From Nanopusillaceae archaeon (GTDB lineage Archaea; Nanobdellota; Nanobdellia; Nanobdellales; Nanobdellaceae): a stretch of DNA of 10,054 bases. Below the pieces are notes generated by a model. The model did not search any database, had not been told where the DNA came from, and saw only the letters and a program-made list of their open reading frames with translations. Below are positions 1 to 10,054 of this stretch, in pieces; positions within the stretch are counted from its first letter, which is position 1; each line of letters begins with the position of its first letter. Made by a program: the position numbers and the translations under genes. The stretch is taken from assembly GCA_038833255.1 (NCBI GenBank), contig JAWBIX010000013.1, positions 1-10,054 of the forward strand. The letters run 5' to 3'.

Positions 1-83
1 ATTTTGATAATATAGAATAATAGAAGATAATAAAAATAAAAACAATAATATAGAAAGGAGAGTCTCTAAGTTTATTACAAAAC

Positions 84-599
84 TCATTCTGAAACAATTT
101 CTAAAATTTTGCCTATTTTTCTTATAATAATTCTACAATTTCCAAAACAAAGAAAGTCGCAATAGTCGCTTTGAATAATATAGCTGTATTTATCTTCATA
201 ACATCCCTCAAAAGATCTTGGAGTTTTTTTAAAAACTTTATAATATACGTTTGTATTGTTAGAATAGAAGTAATAAGAATTATCATATTTTATTAAATCT
301 CCAATATAATCAATGTTTATAAAAATTGGAAAACATTTGGAAGTCTTATAAAAAATTGAATAATTATATTTACAAATTCCATTTAATTCTAAATTTAAAG
401 ATTTAGAAAAATTATAAAAATTTAAAGCATTTTCTAAATAAAAATCTAAGATTCTCATACTAATATCTTCTTTTTTTTCTGTAAAAATAATAGAAAGAGA
501 TATTTTGCTAGTTTCATAATAATTGTAAATAAAATATATTATTGATAGTGAAATTAAGAATAATAATAAATATTCTAAATATAAACTAACACTTTTCAT
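84..599 (-). CDS. Hypothetical small membrane-anchored protein with a Cys-containing ectodomain; no family recognised
   Basis: 171-aa ORF with ATG start and TGA stop. It lies 33 nt downstream of the RNase J-like gene on the same strand. The N-terminus is MK plus a ~22-residue hydrophobic helix (SVSLYLEYLLLFLISLSIIYFIY). A Y/N/K-rich region follows with 6 Cys (GIC, SKC, EGC, DYC, FLC, GNC), four of them in the last ~35 residues. I cannot assign any known family motif. Confidence 0.5.
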   Translation of the reverse strand: MKSVSLYLEYLLLFLISLSIIYFIYNYYETSKISLSIIFTEKKEDISMRILDFYLENALNFYNFSKSLNLELNGICKYNYSIFYKTSKCFPIFINIDYIGDLIKYDNSYYFYSNNTNVYYKVFKKTPRSFEGCYEDKYSYIIQSDYCDFLCFGNCRIIIRKIGKILEIVSE

Positions 600-632
600 A
601 TCTTACTTTTATATCTTTATTTTTGAAAAATT

Positions 633-1961
633 TTAAACTTCTATTGTTTTACTTTGACCATCCTCTAACATAAATAAATCTTGTCCCATCGTATATCCGA
701 AATCTTCAGCAATATTATAATATGCTGCTTTCTTTAAAATATTTCCATGGTTTGGTATTATATATTCAGGATTTAAAAGTTTCAATAAAATTCTATGATC
801 TTCACTTTTAGCATGTCCAGATACATGGACATCTTTAATTATATGAACCTTTTTTCTTTTTAACCTTTCTTCTAAAATTTTTCTATTTGCTTCATTTATT
901 GGAGTTGGAATTACATTATTTGAAAATATTACAGTAGTATTTTCAAAATTAAATGGTAACTGATCTTTGGCTAACCTATCTAATACAGATCCCGGTTCTC
1001 CCTGATGACCCGTAACAATTAGAAGATATTCTTGTTTTTTATTTGATATATCCTTTAAAACTTTAGGATAATCTTTAGAATTTCCATAAATTTCACAAAC
1101 TTCTGAAAAGTTATATAGCCCAATATTTTCTGCGGCTTTCGTATATTTATATAAACTTCTTCCAATTAAAACCGGTTTTCTTCCTAATTCATATGCAATC
1201 TCTATTATGCTTTTTAATCTAGCGATGTGAGATGCGAAAGTCGTAACAATAATTCCCTCAGTTTCTAATGAAAATAAAACATCATAAAGCATATATTTTG
1301 CAACAATTTCTGAAGGAGTTTTAGATTCTTCATCAGCTCTTATACTTTCTACTACTAATAGTATTACATTTTCTTTTCCAATACTTTTTAATTTTTCATA
1401 ATTTGGTCTTTTTCCTATAATGGGGAAATTATCAAATTTAAAATCCCCAGAAAAAATAATGTGTCCTTTTTTAGTTTCTATGTCAATCATTAAAGATTGT
1501 GGGATTGAATGTGTAGAAGAAATAAAATTTATTTTTATTTTTTCAGATAAATCTATTGATGAATTTGGAGAAATTTTTTTTACATTTTTTGGTAAATCTA
1601 TTTCATAATCTTCAAATAAAGATTTAACTATTTCATAAGTATAAGGAGTTAAATATACAGGGACATTATATTTTTTAATTAAAAATGGAATCGCACCACA
1701 GTGATCTAAATGAGCGTGTGTAATTATTATAGCTTTTATTTTATCTCTATATTTTTCTAAAATTCTATCATCTGGAATGGCTTCAATTTCATATAATTTT
1801 TCTAAAGATAAGTTTTCTATATTTTCCCTCTCTCCGAATTGGGCAAGTTTATCTACATCAATTCCCATATCTATTAATATAAGTTCATCATCTATTCTTA
1901 CTCCACTCATATTCGGTATTACATTGGAGTAACCTCCAATTGCCAAAAGTTCAATATCCAT
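633..1961 (-). CDS. rnj: Metallo-beta-lactamase / beta-CASP ribonuclease, archaeal RNase J-like
   Basis: The ORF track (633..1979) starts on a TTG. The first ATG (1961..1959) gives MDIELLAIGGYSNV..., which is where this family normally begins (M..i..lGG). Supporting motifs are HxHxDH (ITHAHLDHCG), the C-terminal beta-CASP/RNase J-type motifs HVSGHA and IIPNHG, and LIDMGI early in the protein. At ~442 aa with no KH domains it fits RNase J (or aCPSF2) rather than aCPSF1. Confidence 0.75.
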   Translation of the reverse strand: MDIELLAIGGYSNVIPNMSGVRIDDELILIDMGIDVDKLAQFGERENIENLSLEKLYEIEAIPDDRILEKYRDKIKAIIITHAHLDHCGAIPFLIKKYNVPVYLTPYTYEIVKSLFEDYEIDLPKNVKKISPNSSIDLSEKIKINFISSTHSIPQSLMIDIETKKGHIIFSGDFKFDNFPIIGKRPNYEKLKSIGKENVILLVVESIRADEESKTPSEIVAKYMLYDVLFSLETEGIIVTTFASHIARLKSIIEIAYELGRKPVLIGRSLYKYTKAAENIGLYNFSEVCEIYGNSKDYPKVLKDISNKKQEYLLIVTGHQGEPGSVLDRLAKDQLPFNFENTTVIFSNNVIPTPINEANRKILEERLKRKKVHIIKDVHVSGHAKSEDHRILLKLLNPEYIIPNHGNILKKAAYYNIAEDFGYTMGQDLFMLEDGQSKTIEV

Positions 1962-1999
1962 GTAAAAATTTTTTAACAATAATTTATATTTCTTAACTA
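1962..1999. promoter_or_regulatory. Compact divergent promoter region (RNase J-like gene leftward, GlyRS gene rightward)
   Basis: The 38-bp spacer is GTAAAAATTTTTTAACAATAATTTATATTTCTTAACTA. TTTATAT (1983-1989, read as ATATAAA on the minus strand) lies ~22-28 bp upstream of the minus-strand ATG at 1961. The AAAATTTTTTAA tract (~1965-1976) lies ~24-35 bp upstream of the plus-strand ATG at 2000. There is no purine-rich SD before either ATG. This is inferred from spacing only. Confidence 0.3.
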
Positions 2000-3664
2000 A
2001 TGAATATATCTGATTTTATAAAATTTTGTGAAGAAAAAGGATTTTTTTATTTATCTGAAAAAATATATGGTGGAAAATCCGGATTTTACGATTATGGTAG
2101 TTTAGGAAAAATTATTGAATTAAAATTTGAAAATTTGTGGAGAAAATATTTTCTAAAATTATTTGATAATTTTTGGGAAATAGAATCCTCAGATATAATG
2201 AAGGAAATTGTTTTTGAGGCTTCAGGACATTTAAAATTGTTTAATGATCCAATTGTCGAATGTAAAAAAGGACATAGATATAGGGCAGATAAGTTGATCG
2301 AAGAAAAAATGGGAATAAAAGCGGAAAGTTTAAAAATAGAAGAAATGGATAAAATATTTGAAGAAGGAAAGGTGTTGTGTCCAGAATGTAGTTCTAGATT
2401 ATCTAAAGTTAGATTATTTAATTTAATGATACCTTCTATTGTCGGTCCAGAACAAGATATCTTTCTTGTTTTAGAAGAATTTTTTAAAACAAATTCAATT
2501 GACAAAGAAAAGCTATTTCAGAGTTATAAAAAATTTTTAGAAAATAGATATTTTTTAAGACCTGAAACGGCACAGGGAGCGTATGTTAATTTTCCTGTTG
2601 AAATAATTATAAATAGATATAGATTACCGATGGGTTTAGCAATAATAGGAAAAGCATATAGAAATGAAATTTCGCCAAGAAATGCTCTTTTAAGAATGAG
2701 AGAATTTAGACAAGCAGAATTACAAATTTTCTTTAGTTATAATGATTTTGATCATCTGTATGAAAAGGTGAAGGAAAATTATTTAAATATATTATTATTT
2801 GAGGATAGAGAAAAAAATATAGATTTTAAGAAAATTAAAATAAAAGATTTAGAAAATAAGTTACCAAAAGCATATCTTTATTTTATGTATAAAATTCAAA
2901 GATTTTATTTAGATGTTATTAAAATTCCAGAAGATAAATTTAGATTTTTTGAGTTATCTGAAAATGAAAAATCTTTCTATAATATGTATCATTTTGATAT
3001 TGAACTTTTCCTTGAAGATATTGGATGGGTAGAAGTTGGTGGAATACATTTTAGAGTTATAAAAGTAAGAAAAGAAGATATAGAAAATATTGAAGATAGA
3101 AGATTAAAAGAAGTATTATTTGAATTATTTAAAAATAAAGAAGAAATAATGGTTGGTTATGATTTATGGAATCATATGTTAAAGTCAAAAAATACAGGTT
3201 TTATTGTTTTAAAAGATAATGAAAAAATTGTTCCATTAGAATTAGAGCTATCTTTTGGTATTGATAGAAATATTTTTTCAATTATTCGAATATTTTATGA
3301 TGAAAAAGAAAACGTGTTGAGATTGCCAATTTATTTATCTCCTATAGAAGTTGCAATATTTCCTCTGTTAGAAAGTAATGAAAGACATGTAAATAAAGCA
3401 AGAGAAGTTTATAACTTGTTAAAATATTCTTTTAATGCTTATTATGATGATTCTGGAAGTATAGGAAAAAGATATAAAAGACAAGATTCTATAGGTACAC
3501 CGTTTTGTATAACAATTGATGAGCAGACATTCTTAGATAATTCTGTTACAATAAGATTTAGAGATACAAAAGAGCAAATAAGAATAAAAATAGATGAAAT
3601 TAAAGATTTTTTAAAAGAAAAATTAAGTTTAGATTTTTTAGAAGAAGTTATTAAAGACATGTAG
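2000..3664 (+). CDS. glyS: Glycine--tRNA ligase (archaeal/eukaryal-type class II GlyRS)
   Basis: 554-aa ORF with ATG start and TAG stop. It carries LRPETAQGAYVNF, the motif 2 region YRNEISPRNALLRMREFRQAE and the motif 3 region LSFGIDR. The Cys-containing insertion (ECKKGHRYRAD ... CPECSS ... FNLM) is characteristic of the archaeal/eukaryal enzyme. The C-terminal anticodon-binding domain is present (IEVAIFPL ... SIGKRYKRQDSIGTPFCITID). Confidence 0.9.
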   Translation: MNISDFIKFCEEKGFFYLSEKIYGGKSGFYDYGSLGKIIELKFENLWRKYFLKLFDNFWEIESSDIMKEIVFEASGHLKLFNDPIVECKKGHRYRADKLIEEKMGIKAESLKIEEMDKIFEEGKVLCPECSSRLSKVRLFNLMIPSIVGPEQDIFLVLEEFFKTNSIDKEKLFQSYKKFLENRYFLRPETAQGAYVNFPVEIIINRYRLPMGLAIIGKAYRNEISPRNALLRMREFRQAELQIFFSYNDFDHLYEKVKENYLNILLFEDREKNIDFKKIKIKDLENKLPKAYLYFMYKIQRFYLDVIKIPEDKFRFFELSENEKSFYNMYHFDIELFLEDIGWVEVGGIHFRVIKVRKEDIENIEDRRLKEVLFELFKNKEEIMVGYDLWNHMLKSKNTGFIVLKDNEKIVPLELELSFGIDRNIFSIIRIFYDEKENVLRLPIYLSPIEVAIFPLLESNERHVNKAREVYNLLKYSFNAYYDDSGSIGKRYKRQDSIGTPFCITIDEQTFLDNSVTIRFRDTKEQIRIKIDEIKDFLKEKLSLDFLEEVIKDM

Positions 3665-3673
3665 TAACTATTC

Positions 3674-3685
3674 TTTTTTTAATAT
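3674..3685 (+). promoter_or_regulatory. TATA-like element upstream of the phosphorylase-like gene; its T7 run may also terminate glyS
   Basis: TTTTTTTAATAT is centred ~27 bp upstream of the ATG at 3707, with no SD-like purine tract in between. The T7 run begins 10 nt after the glyS stop codon, which fits an archaeal oligo-T terminator. This is inference from position only. Confidence 0.35.
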
Positions 3686-3706
3686 CTCAAGAAAATATAT
3701 TTTAAA

Positions 3707-5314
3707 ATGAATAAAAAAATAGCGTTCGTATGTATGGAATTTTCTATTGAAAAACTTCCAACATATGCTGGAGGGCTAGGAATACTTGCAGGAGATCTAC
3801 TTTATACAGCAAATGATTTGGGTATACCATTTTATGGTGTTACTTTTATAAGTAGAAAAGGATACGTTAAGTATAAAATAAAAGATAGAGATCTGATCAT
3901 AGAGACTGAGGATTATGATCCTATAGAATATTTTTCAAAAATCGATGAAACCTATTCAATAAAATTAAAAAATTTAGAAATAAAATTTGACGTCTGGAAA
4001 TATTCTTTGCCAAATGCTAAACTTTATTTAATAGATACAAACAGACCAGATAATCCAGATTGGATAAGAGAATTAACAGATAGGCTATACTTTGAAAAAA
4101 ATGAGGAAGAAAAATTGCTTAAAGATATTTTATTAGGATTGGGAACATTGGAAATATTTGATAAGCAAGGAATAGAAATTGATAAATATCATTTGAATGA
4201 ATCTCATGGTGGATTTTTAGCAATAGAATTATTTAAAAGGTATAATAGTATTGAAGATGTTCGAAAAAAAGTTGTTTTTACGACCCACTCTATTGTTGCT
4301 GGACATGATGAATTTTCTTATGATTTAGTAGAAAAATATTATAATATTCCAGATGAAATAAGAAAAATTTCTCCAAATAAATTATCTTTAACAAAAGTTT
4401 TATTTGAATTATCTGGAAAAAATAATGCGGTATCATGGAAACATAGAGAAGTTACTAAAAAATTATTTGATGTAGATTTAGATTATATTACAAATGGTGT
4501 TTATCATTTTAGGTGGATAAACAGAAAAATGGCAAATTTATACGATATATATTTACCAGGATGGAAAAAAGAACCGGCAAAATTAGCTTATGCGGATTAT
4601 ATTCCTGATTCAGAGTTTTATAGAGTTAGAAGTATACTTAAAGAAGAATTGATAAACTTCATAAACACAGAATCTTATCAAAATAAATCTTTTTCTCATG
4701 ATAGAATATTAATTTCTGTTAGAAGAAGATTAGTAGAATATAAGAGATTTCACATGCCTTTGTGGAGATTAGAATTATTTGAAGAATTGAATAAAAAATA
4801 TAAAATACAATTTTTAATATCTGGAGCATTTCATCCTGCAGATACCTACGTTCAAAATACAATAAAATGGATTATTGATATTATGTCTACTTTAAATACA
4901 CCCATAGCTTTAATACTTAAAAGAGGAATAGAATTAGAAAAGTATATTATTTCTGGAACAGACATATTTTTGCATATTCCTAGACCACCATTAGAAGCAT
5001 CTGGAACTTCATGGATGAGAGCAGCAATTAATGGAGTTCCAGTTTTAGCTTCTAGAGATGGTAGTGTAATAGAAGGAATTATTGATGGATACAATGGTTG
5101 GTTATTTGGAAAAAATAGAATTTATTTAGATGAACCATATAATGAAGATGAAGATGTTTTAGATTTTTATAGAAAACTGGAAGAAGCTTTTAATTTGTAC
5201 AGATATGAACATAGAGAGTATTTAAGAATATGTAAAAATGCTATAAAAACTATTGGACCAATATTTAATACTTATAGAGTTTTAAGAGAATATATTAGAA
5301 GAATATACGAATGA
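3707..5314 (+). CDS. GT35 alpha-glucan (glycogen/maltodextrin) phosphorylase-family protein, short archaeal type, with atypical active-site residues
   Basis: 535-aa ORF with ATG start and TGA stop. Family motifs are CMEFSIEKLPTYAGGLGILAGD (cf. sMEf..e.lpiYsGGLGvLAGD), HLNESHGGF (cf. hlNEGHaaf), FTTHSIVAGHDEF (cf. FTTHTPvpAGhd.F), ITNGVYHFRW, RRRLVEYKR and PPLEASGTSWMRAAINGV (cf. PlEASGTsgMKaamNG). The lysine of the EASGT..MK motif is Arg here (see findings). Confidence 0.75.
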   Translation: MNKKIAFVCMEFSIEKLPTYAGGLGILAGDLLYTANDLGIPFYGVTFISRKGYVKYKIKDRDLIIETEDYDPIEYFSKIDETYSIKLKNLEIKFDVWKYSLPNAKLYLIDTNRPDNPDWIRELTDRLYFEKNEEEKLLKDILLGLGTLEIFDKQGIEIDKYHLNESHGGFLAIELFKRYNSIEDVRKKVVFTTHSIVAGHDEFSYDLVEKYYNIPDEIRKISPNKLSLTKVLFELSGKNNAVSWKHREVTKKLFDVDLDYITNGVYHFRWINRKMANLYDIYLPGWKKEPAKLAYADYIPDSEFYRVRSILKEELINFINTESYQNKSFSHDRILISVRRRLVEYKRFHMPLWRLELFEELNKKYKIQFLISGAFHPADTYVQNTIKWIIDIMSTLNTPIALILKRGIELEKYIISGTDIFLHIPRPPLEASGTSWMRAAINGVPVLASRDGSVIEGIIDGYNGWLFGKNRIYLDEPYNEDEDVLDFYRKLEEAFNLYRYEHREYLRICKNAIKTIGPIFNTYRVLREYIRRIYE

Positions 5315-5359
5315 AGAAGGACGAAAACTCTGAAAAGTGATGATGGACCAAAACGCAGA
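5311..5359 (+). ncRNA. C/D box sRNA, unit 1 (2'-O-methylation guide)
   Basis: The layout is C = ATGAAGA (5311-5317), 12-nt guide AGGACGAAAACT, D' = CTGA (5330-5333), linker AAA, C' = GTGATGA (5337-5343), 12-nt guide TGGACCAAAACG, D = CAGA (5356-5359). The canonical archaeal spacing is met exactly (12-nt guides, 3-nt D'-C' linker). The region is locally G+C-rich in an AT-rich background. The C box overlaps the TGA stop codon (5312-5314) of the upstream gene. Confidence 0.65.
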
Positions 5360-5407
5360 TGATGAATTTGCCGAGTTCAGATCGATGAAGAATTCTACCC
5401 ATGCTGA
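5359..5407 (+). ncRNA. C/D box sRNA, unit 2 (2'-O-methylation guide)
   Basis: The layout is C = ATGATGA (5359-5365, perfect RUGAUGA), 12-nt guide ATTTGCCGAGTT, D' = CAGA (5378-5381), linker TCG, C' = ATGAAGA (5385-5391), 12-nt guide ATTCTACCCATG, D = CTGA (5404-5407). The guide upstream of D' is complementary to a conserved LSU rRNA stretch that I recognise from memory (see findings). No TCATCA is present in this region, so the minus strand cannot encode the boxes. Confidence 0.7.
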
Positions 5408-5409
5408 AA

Positions 5410-6795
5410 CTAAATTTTTTCTTCTGTGTTAGATAGAATTACAAGTGGTTCTGGATTTACATATTTTCTAAACCATCCAACAAAAATTATAGAAGGAACA
5501 TAATCTCTTAATGTACAAGATCCATCAAATGGCCATGTCCTTAGGCTGTCTGAAAAATATGTGCACATTGTGTTAGAAATGTTTACAAGTTTTCTATACA
5601 TTCCTCCTCCAGAAACCCATGAATTTGTATCCCTAGATAAATCCAATAAAAGATTTAAAGAGTGATTTGTCCAAATTATTGGTGGATTTAAACTTAAATT
5701 AACAATTGTTCCGGCTGTTGGTCTCCCCAAATTAACAGGTCCAAAAACTAAAATCCATCCAGTAGTTGTAAAAGTGTTTGTAAGTTGAGTTCTAGTAGTT
5801 AATTGATATCTTACTCTGTAATTATCTAAATCTCTTCCTGGTTGTTGAACTACGTAAATTCTTAACATAGTTATGTTTACAGGAACTAGATCACCAAAAT
5901 CAGAAGGTCTAATTAATATTTCATTTCTTGCATCATGGTAGTATGTGTTGAAAGTATCTTCTGGATTAGATGATCCAAAGCCCCATGTTGTATTAGGAAC
6001 GTTTGGAAATATTTCTCTTTCAGTCCAAATAAATACTCTAGAAATATCACTTAAACTTGTAGCATCAGGATTTCCATAATATAAGTAAATTGTTTTATTT
6101 GAAAATGCAGTTAAATTAACTCTCACCCAAATTCTTGTATTATTGGTATTGCATCCACTTTCTATCCAATAGTTTAATAAAGTTACTCCATCAGAATCCG
6201 TGAATCTTATATCACCACAATCTGATCTCATTTTTCCTTGAGAAATCAAAGTTCGCGTATCCAATATAATTAAAACTTGATAATCTATCAAATTTTGAAC
6301 AGATCTTTCTAAAATATATATTGGAGTTCTAAAATTCCATGGTTCTAACCATGGTCTTTCTAATACTTCAGAAAAAAATATTGCTTTTTCAAATTTTTTT
6401 CCATTACAACTTATAATCTCAATTTTATTCCAACCATTTTTAATATTATCTAGTCTTATTCTTGCAATTTCAGATGGATTTAATAAATCGTCTTTTAGAA
6501 TTTCTTCTATTTCGTATGAAAAATTTATTAAATTACCATTTACATAAACTTTAAAACAACTTAAATCTAAAGAAAGTTTTCCAATATTTTTTATTTTTAT
6601 TTCTGGTAAACTTATTTTATCATCTAAAATTTCAATTATTTCAAATGTAGATTTTTCATATTTTTGTATGTTTTTTAAAATGATATTTGCCAGATTGTTT
6701 ATATTGTAATTTAAATAAAATAAAAAAATAGAAATTGCTATTAAAAAGAATAAAAAACTAAAAGCAGTTCCAATAATAATTGAATTTGTTTTCAT
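5410..6795 (-). CDS. Membrane-anchored/pilin-like surface protein: N-terminal ArlF/ArlG(FlaF/FlaG)-like beta domain fused to a DUF2341 domain and a further beta-rich C-terminal domain
   Basis: 461-aa ORF. Its ATG overlaps the TGA of the upstream gene (ATGA at 6795..6792), and it ends in TAG. The N-terminus is MKTN plus the hydrophobic helix SIIIGTAFSFLFFLIAISIFLFYL. Residues ~50-140 are paralogous to the upstream 152-aa protein. Residues ~148-250 match the DUF2341 signature very well: PWNFRTPIYI...LIDYQVLIILD...GDIRFTDSDGVTLLNYWIE...TRIWVRVNL...KTIYLYYGNPDATS. The C-terminus ends WFRKYVNPEP. Confidence 0.7.
   Translation of the reverse strand: MKTNSIIIGTAFSFLFFLIAISIFLFYLNYNINNLANIILKNIQKYEKSTFEIIEILDDKISLPEIKIKNIGKLSLDLSCFKVYVNGNLINFSYEIEEILKDDLLNPSEIARIRLDNIKNGWNKIEIISCNGKKFEKAIFFSEVLERPWLEPWNFRTPIYILERSVQNLIDYQVLIILDTRTLISQGKMRSDCGDIRFTDSDGVTLLNYWIESGCNTNNTRIWVRVNLTAFSNKTIYLYYGNPDATSLSDISRVFIWTEREIFPNVPNTTWGFGSSNPEDTFNTYYHDARNEILIRPSDFGDLVPVNITMLRIYVVQQPGRDLDNYRVRYQLTTRTQLTNTFTTTGWILVFGPVNLGRPTAGTIVNLSLNPPIIWTNHSLNLLLDLSRDTNSWVSGGGMYRKLVNISNTMCTYFSDSLRTWPFDGSCTLRDYVPSIIFVGWFRKYVNPEPLVILSNTEEKI
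5415..5425 (+). terminator. Oligo-T tract downstream of the sRNA pair (candidate archaeal terminator)
   Basis: TTTTTTCTTCT begins 8 nt after the last D box. It lies inside the 3' end of the convergent minus-strand CDS. This is positional inference only. Confidence 0.3.
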
Positions 6796-7250
6796 GTTAA
6801 GCTACAAGTATTATTATAGATATAAACTATTTTTTCATCATAAGACCCAACATTTGAAACTACTTTTACAGAATATATTCCATCAGATAAATTAAAAACC
6901 GATATTTTTAATGTTTCATGTTTATGCCATGCAGAATCATTAAAAATCTTATATGCAAAAGATATGAATATTTCGCTATATCTACCATTAATAAAAAATT
7001 TTGTTAAGTTCGGATTTAGGATAGTGTTTCCTCTATTTGTTACATAAAATGATACAACTCCATTTTCATAAGAACAAGAATCAATGTCAATTACAGATTG
7101 TAATCTATCAGAAATTATTTTTTCTCTACTTATTATTGCTCCCTGTATTTCTGCTATATTTTTGAACAATCCAGAAGCAAGTAAATATACGGCAACTATA
7201 GTAACTATGAAAAGTAAGACATATGATATTACAGTTGCAATTCCTTTCAT
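6792..7250 (-). CDS. Archaeal type IV pilin-like / ArlF-ArlG (FlaF/FlaG)-like protein with a putative class III signal peptide
   Basis: 152-aa ORF with ATG start and TGA stop. The N-terminus MKG|IATVISYVLLFIVTIVAVYLLASG resembles the archaeal pilin N-terminal domain consensus: a basic residue, then Gly, then a small residue, then ~20 hydrophobic residues. The following beta-rich domain carries the pattern VTNRGNTILNPNLTKFFINGRY, typical of FlaF/FlaG-like and pilin-like proteins. It is translationally coupled to the downstream DUF2341 gene. Confidence 0.6.
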   Translation of the reverse strand: MKGIATVISYVLLFIVTIVAVYLLASGLFKNIAEIQGAIISREKIISDRLQSVIDIDSCSYENGVVSFYVTNRGNTILNPNLTKFFINGRYSEIFISFAYKIFNDSAWHKHETLKISVFNLSDGIYSVKVVSNVGSYDEKIVYIYNNTCSLT

Positions 7251-7286
7251 AAAATAAAATTATTTTTTAGAAACTTTATTTATTAT

Positions 7287-7358
7287 GGGCCCGTAGTCTA
7301 GCGGTAGGATTCCGGCCTCGCTAGCCGGAGGTCCCGGGTTCAAATCCCGGCGGGTCCA
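7287..7358 (+). tRNA. tRNA-Ala (anticodon CGC)
   Basis: GGGCCCG TA GTCTAGCGGTAGGAT T CCGGC CTCGCTA GCCGG AGGTC CCGGG TTCAAAT CCCGG CGGGTCC A. This folds as a full cloverleaf with the G3:U70 alanine identity pair, anticodon CGC at 7319-7321, a GG in the D loop and a TTCAAAT T loop. There is no intron and no encoded CCA. Position 37 is T, which is unusual. Confidence 0.93.
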
Positions 7359-7396
7359 ATTTTTAATAATATTGACTTACAATTAGAATATATAAC

Positions 7397-7467
7397 GCGC
7401 CGGTCGTCTAGTGGTAGGATGCGGGCCTTCCAAGCCCGTGACCCGGGTTCAAATCCCGGCCGGCGCA
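7397..7467 (+). tRNA. tRNA-Gly (anticodon UCC)
   Basis: GCGCCGG TC GTCTAGTGGTAGGAT G CGGGC CTTCCAA GCCCG TGAC CCGGG TTCAAAT CCCGG CCGGCGC A. The acceptor stem is a perfect 7 bp, the anticodon TCC is at 7429-7431, position 37 is A, and the variable loop is 4 nt. There is no intron and no encoded CCA. Confidence 0.95.
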
Positions 7468-7470
7468 ATC

Positions 7471-8058
7471 TTAAATTAAAAAAGAAATAAGATGTCTTAA
7501 AACATTATCTAGATCTTTATGATATTTTTTATAATACTTTATATACATTATTGTTTTTTTGTCCAATTCTTTTGGTAAAAAAGATTTTATTTTATCATAG
7601 TTCCCTTCTATAATAGCTTTTCTTATGTAGCTAGAGTTTAAAATATTGGTTTTTTTCTCATAATAAACATTTATATGCAATGAATATAATCTTGCTATTA
7701 GAGAAACTATTTTGTATGCTAGAAATCTATCTAAATCTCTAGTATAAATCAAAAATTCTTTCTCTCCAGTAGATTTTAAAATATTCAAAAATTTTATGAG
7801 TAGTTTTTTATCTAAGATATTTATAGGCAAAATATAATATTTTCTATGATCTATATAATTTTCTAGAATAGAAGAGATGTATTTATACCTATAGTTAATT
7901 GGAATTGGATTTTTTGGTGATAAAATTTCTTTTTCATTTTTTTGAAGATATGTGGGTATTACTAGAACTAAATCAGTTTTATTAGATAATTTTAGTATTG
8001 TCTCTAAATGTTGTTTATGGAATGGCTGAAACTTCCCGATGAAGATACCTACTACCAT
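7471..8058 (-). CDS. nadM: Nicotinamide-nucleotide adenylyltransferase, archaeal type (cytidylyltransferase-fold)
   Basis: 195-aa ORF with ATG start and TAA stop. The N-terminus VGIFIGKFQPFHKQHLETI matches the archaeal NMNAT signature G(R/K)xQPFHxGH, except for G->Q. Further matches to the M. jannaschii-type enzyme are NPIPINYRY (cf. DPFTAGER), YYILPI (cf. YYIIPV) and NSSYIRKAIIEGNYDKIKSFLPKEL (cf. [23 protein letters not shown]). Confidence 0.72.
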   Translation of the reverse strand: MVVGIFIGKFQPFHKQHLETILKLSNKTDLVLVIPTYLQKNEKEILSPKNPIPINYRYKYISSILENYIDHRKYYILPINILDKKLLIKFLNILKSTGEKEFLIYTRDLDRFLAYKIVSLIARLYSLHINVYYEKKTNILNSSYIRKAIIEGNYDKIKSFLPKELDKKTIMYIKYYKKYHKDLDNVLRHLISFLI

Positions 8059-8078
8059 CTCTTCTAAGTAATTACAAA

Positions 8079-8090
8079 TTTTATATATAT
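8079..8090. promoter_or_regulatory. Shared A/T-alternating TATA element of a divergent promoter (nadM leftward, HerA-like ATPase rightward)
   Basis: TTTTATATATAT lies in a 56-bp spacer. Its centre is ~27 bp from the minus-strand ATG (8058) and ~30 bp from the plus-strand ATG (8115). There is no SD-like tract on either side. This is inferred from spacing only. Confidence 0.4.
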
Positions 8091-8114
8091 TGTTAAAGAT
8101 GTTTAAAATATTTT

Positions 8115-9425
8115 ATGGATATTATAATAGGAAGAACTCAGGATGAAATTGAAAAATATGGTAAAGAAGGGACAATTTTTATCGGAAAAGAATATATAAA
8201 GATGGAAAATGCTCTTTCTCTTGCAAATGAAGTTTATTTAGATGTCAATTTTCCACATATAATTTTAATTGTTGGAAAGAGAGGGCAAGGAAAATCTTAT
8301 ACATTATCTTCAATTATAGAAGGAATATCTCTGTTAGACTATTCATATAGAAAAAATATAGTCAATTTAGTTTTTGATACAATGGGAATATTTTGGACAA
8401 TGAAATTTCCGAACTATAGGGAAGCAGAATTATTAGAAAGATGGAATATGAAACCAAAAGCATTAGATAATGCAAAAATATATGTACCTGAAGGAATTTA
8501 TGAAAAATACGAGGATTTAAAAATCCCTGTTGATGATACCTTTACTATTAATCCGCATGATTTATCAGAAATCGATTGGACATTGGTTTTTAATTTAAAT
8601 CCAATATCATTGAAAGCAGCATATTTGCAAAGAATAATTAGAGAGCTTAAAAGAAGAAATGAGGACTATTCTATAGAAAACATAATCAATTATATTGAGA
8701 AAAAAAGTTTAGATCCAAAAATAAAAGAAATTTTGATAAATTATTTTGAAAATGCAAATTCCTGGGGATTGTTCTCGGAAAAAGCTACACAATTGAAGAA
8801 AATTTTAACTCCTGGAGATGTAATAATATTAGATATTTCTTTATATACTACAATACTGGGTGGATGGTCTGTTAAAAATTTAGTAATTGGATTAATCTCT
8901 AAAAAAATATTTTATGAAAGATTACTTTGGAGAAAAAAAGAAGAATTAGAAGAAGCATACTTGGGATTTGAAATTAGAGATAGAGAAATGCCTCTCATTT
9001 GGATATATATAGATGAAGCACATGAAGCCATTCCAAAAGATAGTATTACTCCTGCTACAGAACCATTGTTACAGATAATAAGAGAGGGCAGACAACCAGG
9101 AATATCGTTAGTTTTGGCAACGCAACAACCAGGAAAATTATTAATCGATGCAATTTCTCAGTCTGATATAGTTATATCCCATAGAGTTACTGCAAAAAGC
9201 GATATAGATGCTCTTAATGAAGTTATGAAAAATTTTACAGCTCAGGATATTGAAATATATATGAATGAAAATCTTCCAAAAAGAAAAGGGGCAGCAATAG
9301 TATTAGATGATAAATCAGAAAGAATATATCCAGTTCAAATAAAACCAAGATTTTCTTGGCATGGAGGTCAAGATGCTCAGTTAATTAGAAAAAGAATATG
9401 GTTAGAGGAATATTCAAAAAAATAG
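8115..9425 (+). CDS. HerA/FtsK-superfamily P-loop ATPase (DUF87 / COG0433-like), short form without a recognisable HAS-barrel
   Basis: 436-aa ORF with ATG start and TAG stop. Walker A is VGKRGQGKSYT (G54-S61, nt 8274-8297), followed by VFDTMG (cf. ifDpHGEY). Walker B is LIWIYIDEAHEAIP (D300-E301 at nt 9012-9017). The C-terminal HerA-type block is IIREGRQPGISLVLATQQPGKLLIDAISQSDIVISHRVTAKSDIDAL (cf. REGRKfGvsL.l.tQrP..l...vlsQc.t.i..rl....D). Confidence 0.8.
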   Translation: MDIIIGRTQDEIEKYGKEGTIFIGKEYIKMENALSLANEVYLDVNFPHIILIVGKRGQGKSYTLSSIIEGISLLDYSYRKNIVNLVFDTMGIFWTMKFPNYREAELLERWNMKPKALDNAKIYVPEGIYEKYEDLKIPVDDTFTINPHDLSEIDWTLVFNLNPISLKAAYLQRIIRELKRRNEDYSIENIINYIEKKSLDPKIKEILINYFENANSWGLFSEKATQLKKILTPGDVIILDISLYTTILGGWSVKNLVIGLISKKIFYERLLWRKKEELEEAYLGFEIRDREMPLIWIYIDEAHEAIPKDSITPATEPLLQIIREGRQPGISLVLATQQPGKLLIDAISQSDIVISHRVTAKSDIDALNEVMKNFTAQDIEIYMNENLPKRKGAAIVLDDKSERIYPVQIKPRFSWHGGQDAQLIRKRIWLEEYSKK

Positions 9426-10054
9426 AAGGAATAATATCTCTAGTTGTATTTATTTTATTTTTGATTTTTTATTTTAACGTTTATGATATTACGATATTTA
9501 ATGATTCTAATAATGAAATTTACAGAAAAATACAAACCATAGAAGAAATTTATAATAAGCTAAAAAAAGAAGGATATATTGTTAGTTTTAGAGTTTATAT
9601 ATCAAAATATTCTAAAGAAATTTTGTGTAATTTAAATAACGAAGAATTAAGAAAAGAACTTTGTTACAATCATCCTTTTTTTATTCCAATAAATCTTAGT
9701 TTTTTATTAAAAAATGATGGAATATTAAGTAATACAAATAATACTCTTTTTAAAAAAGACCTTGGAGGATTTGTATATCTAAATTTATCTTCTTTTGAAT
9801 GTGAAGAAGAAGAGTATATTTTAATTGAAGTAAAAGGTCCAATAAATTCTCCAAAAATTGTATTTGTTACAACTCCAACTATTTACTATTGGTTAAATAG
9901 TGGTTTTAATGTAACAGTAGAATCTAATGTAGAGGCAGAATTTAGTTATTGTTATTTATCGGAAAATGGAACATGTTTAGAATCTAATACTGGAAAATCT
10001 TATGGTATAATAATAAAAATAGATTATCTTACATCAGAAAAAGCAATTTTTAAT
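9398..10054 (+). CDS. Hypothetical membrane-anchored protein (partial, continues beyond the window); candidate partner of the HerA-like ATPase
   Basis: This ORF is not in the supplied track because it has no stop in the window. I translated it by hand: ATG at 9398, preceded by an in-frame TAG at 9386-9388, then 219 open codons to the window end. The sequence begins MVRGIFKKIEGIISLVVFILFLIFYFNVYDITIFNDSNNEIYRK... It has one N-terminal hydrophobic helix followed by a beta-rich N/Y/E-rich region with 5 Cys. It overlaps the ATPase 3' end by 28 nt in a different frame. An open frame this long is unlikely by chance in DNA this AT-rich. Confidence 0.6.
   Translation, partial: MVRGIFKKIEGIISLVVFILFLIFYFNVYDITIFNDSNNEIYRKIQTIEEIYNKLKKEGYIVSFRVYISKYSKEILCNLNNEELRKELCYNHPFFIPINLSFLLKNDGILSNTNNTLFKKDLGGFVYLNLSSFECEEEEYILIEVKGPINSPKIVFVTTPTIYYWLNSGFNVTVESNVEAEFSYCYLSENGTCLESNTGKSYGIIIKIDYLTSEKAIFN

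Follow-up and report, generated by a model that had tools for sequence, protein, structure and literature searches.

Two probable box C/D guide RNAs joined head to tail at the stop codon of a phosphorylase gene in a Nanopusillaceae archaeon

What occupies a short spacer between two convergent genes of a Nanopusillaceae archaeon, for which genome annotations show nothing? The spacer lies at positions 5311-5407 of the window, the whole stretch of DNA analysed here (10,054 nucleotides (nt), contig JAWBIX010000013.1, positions 1 to 10,054, assembly GCA_038833255.1), between an alpha-glucan phosphorylase-family gene and a gene of the DUF2341 family. It very probably encodes two complete archaeal box C/D guide RNAs, arranged head to tail, which would direct 2'-O-methylation of ribosomal RNA (rRNA) and transfer RNA (tRNA). 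Its architecture, its conservation across related lineages and the complementarity between guides and targets carry this reading.

On the plus strand, the order C box, guide, D' box, linker, C' box, guide, D box occurs twice in succession. The layout set out in an earlier, sequence-only reading of the locus was confirmed to the base: the four guides all measure 12 nt, both linkers measure 3 nt, and the units meet at A5359, a single base common to the D box of unit 1 and the C box of unit 2. The TGA at 5312-5314, inside the first C box, is the stop codon of the open reading frame (ORF) at 3707-5314, and the last D box ends 2 nt from the convergent ORF end at 5410. The features are as follows, sRNA denoting small RNA.

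3707-5314, plus strand: alpha-glucan phosphorylase-family gene (535 amino acids, PF00343), upstream, the likely host transcript.
5311-5359, plus strand: unit 1, box C/D sRNA, recognised by its pattern, by Rfam model sR14 and by conservation in loci L004/L005, Nanoclepta L006/L007 and L277.
5311-5317, plus strand: unit 1 C box, ATGAAGA (RNA AUGAAGA), containing the stop codon at 5312-5314.
5318-5329, plus strand: unit 1 D' guide, AGGACGAAAACT (RNA AGGACGAAAACU), predicted target tRNA-Glu(UUC).
5330-5333, plus strand: unit 1 D' box, CTGA (CUGA), followed by the linker AAA.
5337-5343, plus strand: unit 1 C' box, GTGATGA (GUGAUGA).
5344-5355, plus strand: unit 1 D guide, TGGACCAAAACG (RNA UGGACCAAAACG), putative target tRNA-Gln(UUG).
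5356-5359, plus strand: unit 1 D box, CAGA.
5359-5407, plus strand: unit 2, box C/D sRNA, recognised by its pattern, by Rfam models sR11, sR47, sR2 and others, and by homologues in 8 lineages.
5359-5365, plus strand: unit 2 C box, ATGATGA (AUGAUGA).
5366-5377, plus strand: unit 2 D' guide, ATTTGCCGAGTT (RNA AUUUGCCGAGUU), predicted target 23S rRNA.
5378-5381, plus strand: unit 2 D' box, CAGA, followed by the linker TCG (UCG).
5385-5391, plus strand: unit 2 C' box, ATGAAGA (AUGAAGA).
5392-5403, plus strand: unit 2 D guide, ATTCTACCCATG (RNA AUUCUACCCAUG), an orphan guide with a conserved core.
5404-5407, plus strand: unit 2 D box, CTGA (CUGA).
5410-6795, minus strand: convergent DUF2341 gene, bounding the sRNA block 2 nt past the last D box.
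5415-5420, plus strand: T6 run, a possible archaeal oligo-T terminator, 8 nt past the last D box.

The pattern exceeds chance. RTGAWGA-N12-CWGA-N3-RTGAWGA-N12-CWGA matches twice in the window, at the two units, against none expected from 200 dinucleotide-preserving shuffles, and a looser regular expression found no further match on either strand of 222 kb of nanoarchaeal loci. The block shows no stable fold of its own (z = -0.02), as expected of C/D RNAs, which are scaffolded by protein.

Conservation was assessed by comparing the DNA downstream of the orthologous phosphorylase gene in ten further lineages. Homologues of the protein share 96% identity with the window protein in another Nanopusillaceae archaeon, 75% in Candidatus Nanoclepta minutus and 61% in Nanobdella aerobiophila. 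The same protein and spacer also occur on contigs of three metagenome-assembled genomes (MAGs) at NCBI, with the 97 nt identical in all three. The lineages fall into three states.

Both units at the locus: the 96% relatives (L004/L005), Ca. Nanoclepta minutus (L006/L007) and a Logan contig (L277).
Unit 2 alone, with the stop codon in its C box: Nanobdella aerobiophila (L008), L010, L011 and L280.
Locus without an sRNA: L278/L279 and the 50% relatives (L012/L013).

In the double-unit lineages, the 1-nt overlap is kept and indels are absent. Their differences are limited to guide position 1, the guide bases beside D or D', the linkers and one D box position (CAGA to CTGA). Between the window and Nanoclepta, the 97-nt block is identical at 88 of 97 positions and the upstream coding sequence at 77-82% (68% at third codon positions); the alignment collapses directly after the last D box, and the DNA beyond it is unalignable. 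Across the eight sequences of unit 2, the sequence in the boxes and at guide positions 2-10/11 is either constant or altered by transitions only, with variation confined to the linkers and guide positions 1 and 12. This pattern is a signature of selection on guide function. Unit 2 is moreover retained beside three different downstream neighbours, namely DUF2341, FEN1 (L008, L010) and tRNA-His (L280), and its occurrence alone in relatives indicates that each unit can stand by itself.

Unit 2, present at the locus in eight lineages, would be the older unit; unit 1 occurs only in the window clade and Nanoclepta. A neighbour-joining tree of the host protein groups the double-unit lineages together and places the single-unit lineages as sister to them, a topology under which gain and loss of unit 1 are equally parsimonious. 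In either case, the change amounts to an exact 48-nt step between two C boxes, with the first C box keeping the stop codon. In the L278/L279 lineage (L278 6998-7186), the phosphorylase gene ends in TAA, no sRNA is present and an isolated ATGATGA lies about 90 nt downstream; its position, nested among single-unit lineages, is consistent with secondary loss.

Individual loci add detail on unit 2. In L008 (AP019769, 11599-11647), it overlaps the last ~13 nt of a convergent FEN1/XPG gene (11635-12681, minus strand), and its D guide, which is antisense to that coding sequence, yet retains the conserved core. In L280 (9917-10051), a convergent tRNA-His gene lies 14 nt downstream of unit 2 and the phosphorylase gene sits among ribosomal protein genes; the sRNA therefore travels with the phosphorylase gene and not with the downstream neighbour. 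Runs of T5-T7 follow the unit in Nanobdella, L010 and L011 as well, and are absent in Nanoclepta. A scan of viral contigs for unit 2-like sRNAs gave 9 matches, all within one phage ORF (...TDDFAEFRH...), and these were discarded as chance.

Which RNAs would the guides address? For the D' guide of unit 2, the most likely target is the 23S rRNA at GGGAACUC, directly followed by GGCAAAU, with methylation predicted on the C that precedes the GG, the equivalent of Escherichia coli position 1672. Within the archaeal 23S consensus AGGGAACUCGGCAAAUUGG (Dennis 2015 alignment), the stretch CUCGGCAAA is complementary to the guide core UUUGCCGAG, and the second C of CUCGG pairs with the fifth base of the guide, counted from D'. 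In Nanoarchaeum equitans, sRNA21 was detected at 43,700 reads, and its D' guide GUUUGCCGAUUA is predicted to methylate the same C, C1790, within AAAUCmGGCAAAUUG of its own 23S rRNA, Cm marking the methylated base (PMC3491384). Thermoproteus tenax sR151 and Ignicoccus hospitalis sR169 carry GUUUGCCGAGUG in the same register. The 23S form predicted from the unit 2 guide is GGGAACUCGGCAAA.

The D guide of unit 2 varies among the 8 homologues only by transitions in its core, at guide positions 3 and 4 (Y) and 10 (R), which implies a fixed target R-U-G-G-G-U-R-G-G-R. Two E. coli sites, 23S 1186 and 16S 670, were set aside as targets, neither being conserved in the archaea examined. A bacterial AUGGGUARRA at about E. 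coli 1628 was likewise rejected as a coincidence that says nothing on the Nanopusillaceae lineage. In 23S rRNA of Nitrospirota, Verrucomicrobiales, Atopobium and Babeliales, this word stands 28-30 nt upstream of AAGGAACUCGGCAAA, mimicking both unit 2 targets. A contig scan for the two targets 18-40 nt apart covered the 23S context in its bacterial form, AAGGAAC (AGGGAAC in archaea), and therefore returned 38 bacterial 23S loci and none from Nanoarchaeota.

For the D' guide of unit 1, the wobble base U34 of tRNA-Glu(UUC) is the most likely target, placed by the rule of the fifth guide base (N+5). A metagenome scan for the predicted tRNA context recovered 13 A+T-rich contigs (23-30% G+C) with an archaeal tRNA-Glu(UUC), which exact-sequence look-ups assign to Ca. 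Nanopusillus, of the same family. Its anticodon stem-loop reads GGGUUUUCGUCCC, within the arm AUAGG-GUUUUCGU-CCCUAU, and the window guide forms 10 Watson-Crick pairs and 1 G.U pair with positions 30-40. The variant guide of L004, GGGACGAAAACU, pairs at all 12 positions (11 Watson-Crick pairs plus 1 G.U). The tRNA-Glu(CUC) loop, UUCUCAU, differs, so this isoacceptor would escape the guide. The same UUUUCGU loop also occurs in another set of tRNA-Glu(UUC) genes of archaeal appearance, located on contigs with 32-38% G+C (L196, L223, L229, L237, L238, L267, L270); a loop with U32/G37/U38 is thus no peculiarity of Nanopusillaceae.

The two guides of unit 1 are identical at 9 of 12 positions. Their cores, GGACGAAAA and GGACCAAAAC, differ at one base only, C in the D guide and G in the D' guide, opposite anticodon base 36. 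Such similarity points to duplication of a half-unit, after which a single substitution would have switched the target, either from Gln to Glu or in the opposite direction. The D guide probably addresses positions 31-41 of tRNA-Gln(UUG), again with U34 at N+5, judging from tRNAs of other lineages: of 120 matches in viral contigs to its complement, GUUUUGGUCCA, 117 were tRNA-Gln(UUG) genes with this motif as their anticodon stem-loop. The form predicted for the tRNA-Gln is G31-UUUUGGU-CCA41. The metagenome scan with the predicted anticodon loop found tRNA-Gln matches of bacterial appearance only, and a gene with the canonical 37/38 intron would escape that pattern. Guided U34 methylation of tRNA-Gln has a published precedent in Pyrobaculum sR27 (PMC6009581). 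In N. equitans sRNA1, a CAGA box follows the D' guide TGGACCAAATTA, for which no rRNA target is predicted. This guide has TGGACCAAA in common with the D guide of unit 1, and that half of sRNA1 may be the N. equitans guide for U34 of tRNA-Gln.

The sequence-only reading had expected rRNA or tRNA complementarity, and the D' guides of both units match such targets. Its identification of two archaeal C/D box sRNAs is further supported by the conservation pattern, by stand-alone unit 2 and by the registers of Rfam matches. The covariance-model scan that it had suggested gave a divided result: by E-value, only C/D families match, and none reaches the Rfam gathering threshold, at which the two tRNAs are the only matches in the window. 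The E-value scan of 5200-5520 returned 23 matches, all to C/D box families and all on the plus strand. Of these, 22 are archaeal sR or Pyrococcus models and one is eukaryotic (SNORD82). They fall in two registers, about 5304-5367 and 5355-5409, except for a weak sR55 match (5381-5429), and the best is sR14 (E 3.6e-4, positions 5307-5361).

Several points weigh against the identification. Every Rfam score lies under its gathering threshold, the best being 22.7 bits against 38. As the Pyrococcus models are genus- or guide-specific, such scores are expected for a distant phylum, and the failure argues against membership of those Pyrococcus families and not against the C/D class. AUGAAGA as box C and CAGA as box D are non-consensus forms. 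No gene for fibrillarin, Nop5 or L7Ae turned up in ~300 kb of loci, with each genome covered only in part; a tblastn search of these loci with Methanocaldococcus jannaschii fibrillarin and L7Ae sequences gave no match, an uninformative result. The three proteins are known for N. equitans only. Expression of either unit in this lineage is deduced from sequence. As to targets, the tRNA-Glu(UUC) match comes from the sister genus Nanopusillus and not from the window MAG, tRNA-Gln(UUG) is proposed by analogy with tRNAs of other lineages, and the predicted 23S target draws on rRNA of other archaea. The target implied for the unit 2 D guide, R-U-G-G-G-U-R-G-G-R, is absent from 16S and 23S rRNA of E. 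coli and seven archaea (Dennis 2015 supplements) and from the tRNAs examined.

The box variants find an explanation in the lineage. In the kink-turn boxes of both units (AUGAAGA/CAGA in unit 1, AUGAUGA/CUGA in unit 2), the GA dinucleotides that form the G.A pairs are intact. In the internal kink-loops (CUGA-AAA-GUGAUGA and CAGA-UCG-AUGAAGA), the boxes are conserved and the loop sequence varies, while guides remain 12 nt long in every homologue. Wherever a CAGA box occurs, its partner is a GAAGA box, and no homologue combines UGAUGA with CAGA; counts for C-type position 5 and D-type position 2 are A/A 7, U/U 14, A/U 3 and U/A 0. The same CAGA/GAAGA pairing occurs in N. equitans sRNAs 1, 5, 16, 17, 19 and 21, all detected by RNA sequencing (RNA-seq), and the AUGAAGA/CAGA pair itself recurs in sRNAs 16, 17, 19 and 21 (PMC3491384). 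This recurrence indicates that the variants are lineage-typical and not degenerate. In the window block (5311-5407), in L280 (9917-9965) and in the N. equitans sRNAs, an A.A pair stands in for the usual U.U beside the tandem G.A pairs. Its covariation with U.U was rejected as proof of the C/D register, the alternative C/D' register giving A-U pairs and the events being few and phylogenetically linked; it was kept as supporting evidence only.

How would such RNAs be made and used? From the arrangement, we infer expression, co-transcription, cleavage at the D|C junction and methylation. L7Ae would bind the C/D kink-turn and C'/D' kink-loop of each unit, and Nop5 and fibrillarin would then be recruited; the 2'-OH to be methylated belongs to the target nucleotide that pairs with the fifth guide base ahead of D or D'. 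These protein roles are established for archaeal C/D ribonucleoproteins (RNPs; review, PMC7994747). The D' guide of unit 2 would yield 2'-O-methylcytidine in 23S rRNA at the equivalent of E. coli 1672, and the guides of unit 1 would yield 2'-O-methyluridine 34 (Um34) in tRNA-Glu(UUC) and, presumably, in tRNA-Gln(UUG). Transcription of the phosphorylase gene would run on through both units, and trimming limited by the bound RNPs would then free them from the 3' end of the mRNA. Co-transcription with that mRNA is the most likely arrangement, because the stop codon sits in the first C box, no promoter stands upstream at canonical spacing and a T6 run follows at 5415-5420. [quoted passage not shown]

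The earlier statement that no space is left for a promoter was too strong, since a promoter could sit inside the upstream ORF. It is possible, if doubtful, that both sRNAs are real and start from a promoter of their own in the last phosphorylase codons, with no processing of the mRNA. An A+T-rich, TATA-like GAATATAT, which encodes E-Y-I, precedes the C box by about 15-24 nt in every lineage, and some N. equitans sRNAs are known to have promoters of their own. The distance is non-canonical, however, falling short of the ~26 nt usual from TATA centre to start, such that transcription would begin within box C. Conservation of the motif is accounted for by the protein sequence, and the phosphorylase orthologues share the same C-terminal motif at the protein end. 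Moreover, only ~20% of archaeal C/D genes have a promoter motif of their own (PMC7994747).

A further alternative, which we consider unlikely, accepts the transcript and concerns its fate: the two units would never be separated, and in place of two RNAs of ~49 nt a single RNA of about 97 nt, possibly circularised, would carry four guides and two RNPs. The zero spacer with its shared base is suggestive, as is the junction itself: the window clade and Nanoclepta have it in identical form, although their linkers and guide ends have diverged. Once both RNPs had assembled, no accessible linker would be left for a nuclease, and for a Pyrobaculum pair with a 4-nt D/C overlap the authors call maturation unclear (PMC6009581). 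Nevertheless, unit 2 is a stand-alone gene in four other lineages, each of the 26 sRNAs that RNA-seq detected in N. equitans is a single unit of 50-60 nt, and the lack of indels over 97 nt is explicable by constraint on each unit. That the abutment is itself functional, the uncut or circularised transcript forming a covalently linked double RNP, seems decidedly improbable. A di-sRNP has been seen in vitro for archaeal C/D RNPs, and the 97-nt double RNP would be its natural in-cis version. Were it real, it would couple 23S methylation to wobble methylation of tRNA-Glu and tRNA-Gln and represent, formally, the minimal form of the head-to-tail guide arrangement that is extended in TIGR arrays.

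It is very improbable that the kink-turns act in cis, as an L7Ae-binding element in the 3' untranslated region that regulates the phosphorylase mRNA or the convergent gene. L7Ae does bind mRNA kink-turns and is suggested as a translation regulator (PMC5539422). A cis element, however, leaves unexplained both the strict conservation of the guide cores and the complementarity to the tRNA-Glu anticodon loop and a known 23S site, and unit 2 is kept beside DUF2341, FEN1 and tRNA-His alike. Hardly credible at all is a functionless chance cluster of UGAUGA- and CUGA-like words in an A+T-rich spacer: words with UGA do occur often around stop codons and the Rfam matches are all below gathering, but the shuffles, the 222 kb scan and the specific target matches speak against it, and the guide-specific conservation across genera effectively refutes it. 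Two complete guide RNAs, most likely made as part of the phosphorylase transcript, remain the preferred reading.

The surroundings of the block complete the picture. It had also been described as richer in G+C than its flanks, as the tRNAs are. The first half of this holds, with 41% G+C against 26% in the whole window, placing the block in the top 2% of 97-nt windows; the comparison with the tRNAs does not, as these are far higher, at 66-69% in a 26% G+C genome. The two tRNA genes, tRNA-Ala(CGC) (7286-7359) and tRNA-Gly(UCC) (7397-7467), lie 37 nt apart on the plus strand between two minus-strand genes, and their T arms are identical (CCCGGGTTCAAATCCCGG). An RNase J-like beta-CASP ribonuclease gene (633-1979, minus strand) stands two genes upstream of the sRNA locus and is a conserved neighbour in all lineages examined except L280, whose neighbourhood differs. 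Its mechanically called ORF has a TTG start and 448 amino acids, against 442-443 in database gene calls. No Nop-domain gene is found among the window ORFs; N. equitans encodes fibrillarin (NEQ125) and Nop56 (NEQ342).

A literature search found no sRNA described for Nanopusillaceae, nor for Nanopusillus, Nanoclepta or Nanobdella. Within the scope of that search, those of the block are the first C/D box guide RNAs on record for the family. The block also yields a prediction for these minimal-genome organisms: a single small RNA sets Um34 on tRNA-Glu(UUC) as well as on tRNA-Gln(UUG). For guide evolution, it offers a putative half-unit duplication with single-base retargeting that matches anticodon position 36, and the gain or loss of a whole unit exactly between two C boxes, such that the host stop codon stays in whichever C box comes first.

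Each unusual element of the locus has a precedent, whether the stop codon in box C, polycistronic clusters, the D/C overlap, a guide to U34 of tRNA-Gln or the 23S site. What is new is the abutment kept across genera and, in unit 1, a pair of near-duplicate guides that apparently have the wobble bases of two sister tRNAs as their targets. The closest counterpart of unit 2 is N. equitans sRNA21, from the same phylum, with 12-nt guides, a 3-nt D'-C' linker, AUGAAGA and CAGA boxes and a D' guide predicted on the same 23S cytidine. The N. equitans guide has co-varied with its own rRNA (AAAUC against AACUC). In contrast to unit 2, sRNA21 has an unrelated D guide, AACCAGGCGCUG, and is a single gene in the context NEQ424/NEQ423 (PMC3491384). 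Unit 1 resembles Pyrobaculum sR27, a C/D guide to wobble nucleotide 34 of tRNA-Gln (PMC6009581). The likeness lies in the target; in unit 1, both guides are near-duplicates predicted to address the same position in two related tRNAs, Glu(UUC) and Gln(UUG).

At the level of the whole block, comparison can be made with three arrangements. With the archaeal C/D genes that overlap ORF 3' ends (Tripp et al. 2017, as summarised in PMC7994747), the block is the same in kind and constitutes a further example. TIGR arrays likewise consist of head-to-tail dual-guide units without spacers, in which edge (D and C) and loop (D' and C') elements alternate. They typically comprise 5-15 units beside a Tas (Nop-domain) gene, whereas the block has 2 units and no adjacent Tas gene and is set apart by its L7Ae kink-turn boxes, 12-nt guides and putative rRNA and tRNA targets (PMC12045711); the resemblance is formal only. 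A similar layout is known from the Pyrobaculum neutrophilum pair sR34/sR40, also head to tail and co-transcribed, in which the first D box overlaps the second C box. The overlap there is 4 nt against 1 nt in the block, the pair is not reported on a stop codon, and its arrangement varies within one genus from -4 nt to >2000 nt, whereas the overlap of the block is kept across genera (PMC6009581). The zero-spacer junction of the Nanopusillaceae block provides a convenient natural substrate for studying how overlapping C/D units mature, a question shared with the Pyrobaculum pair.

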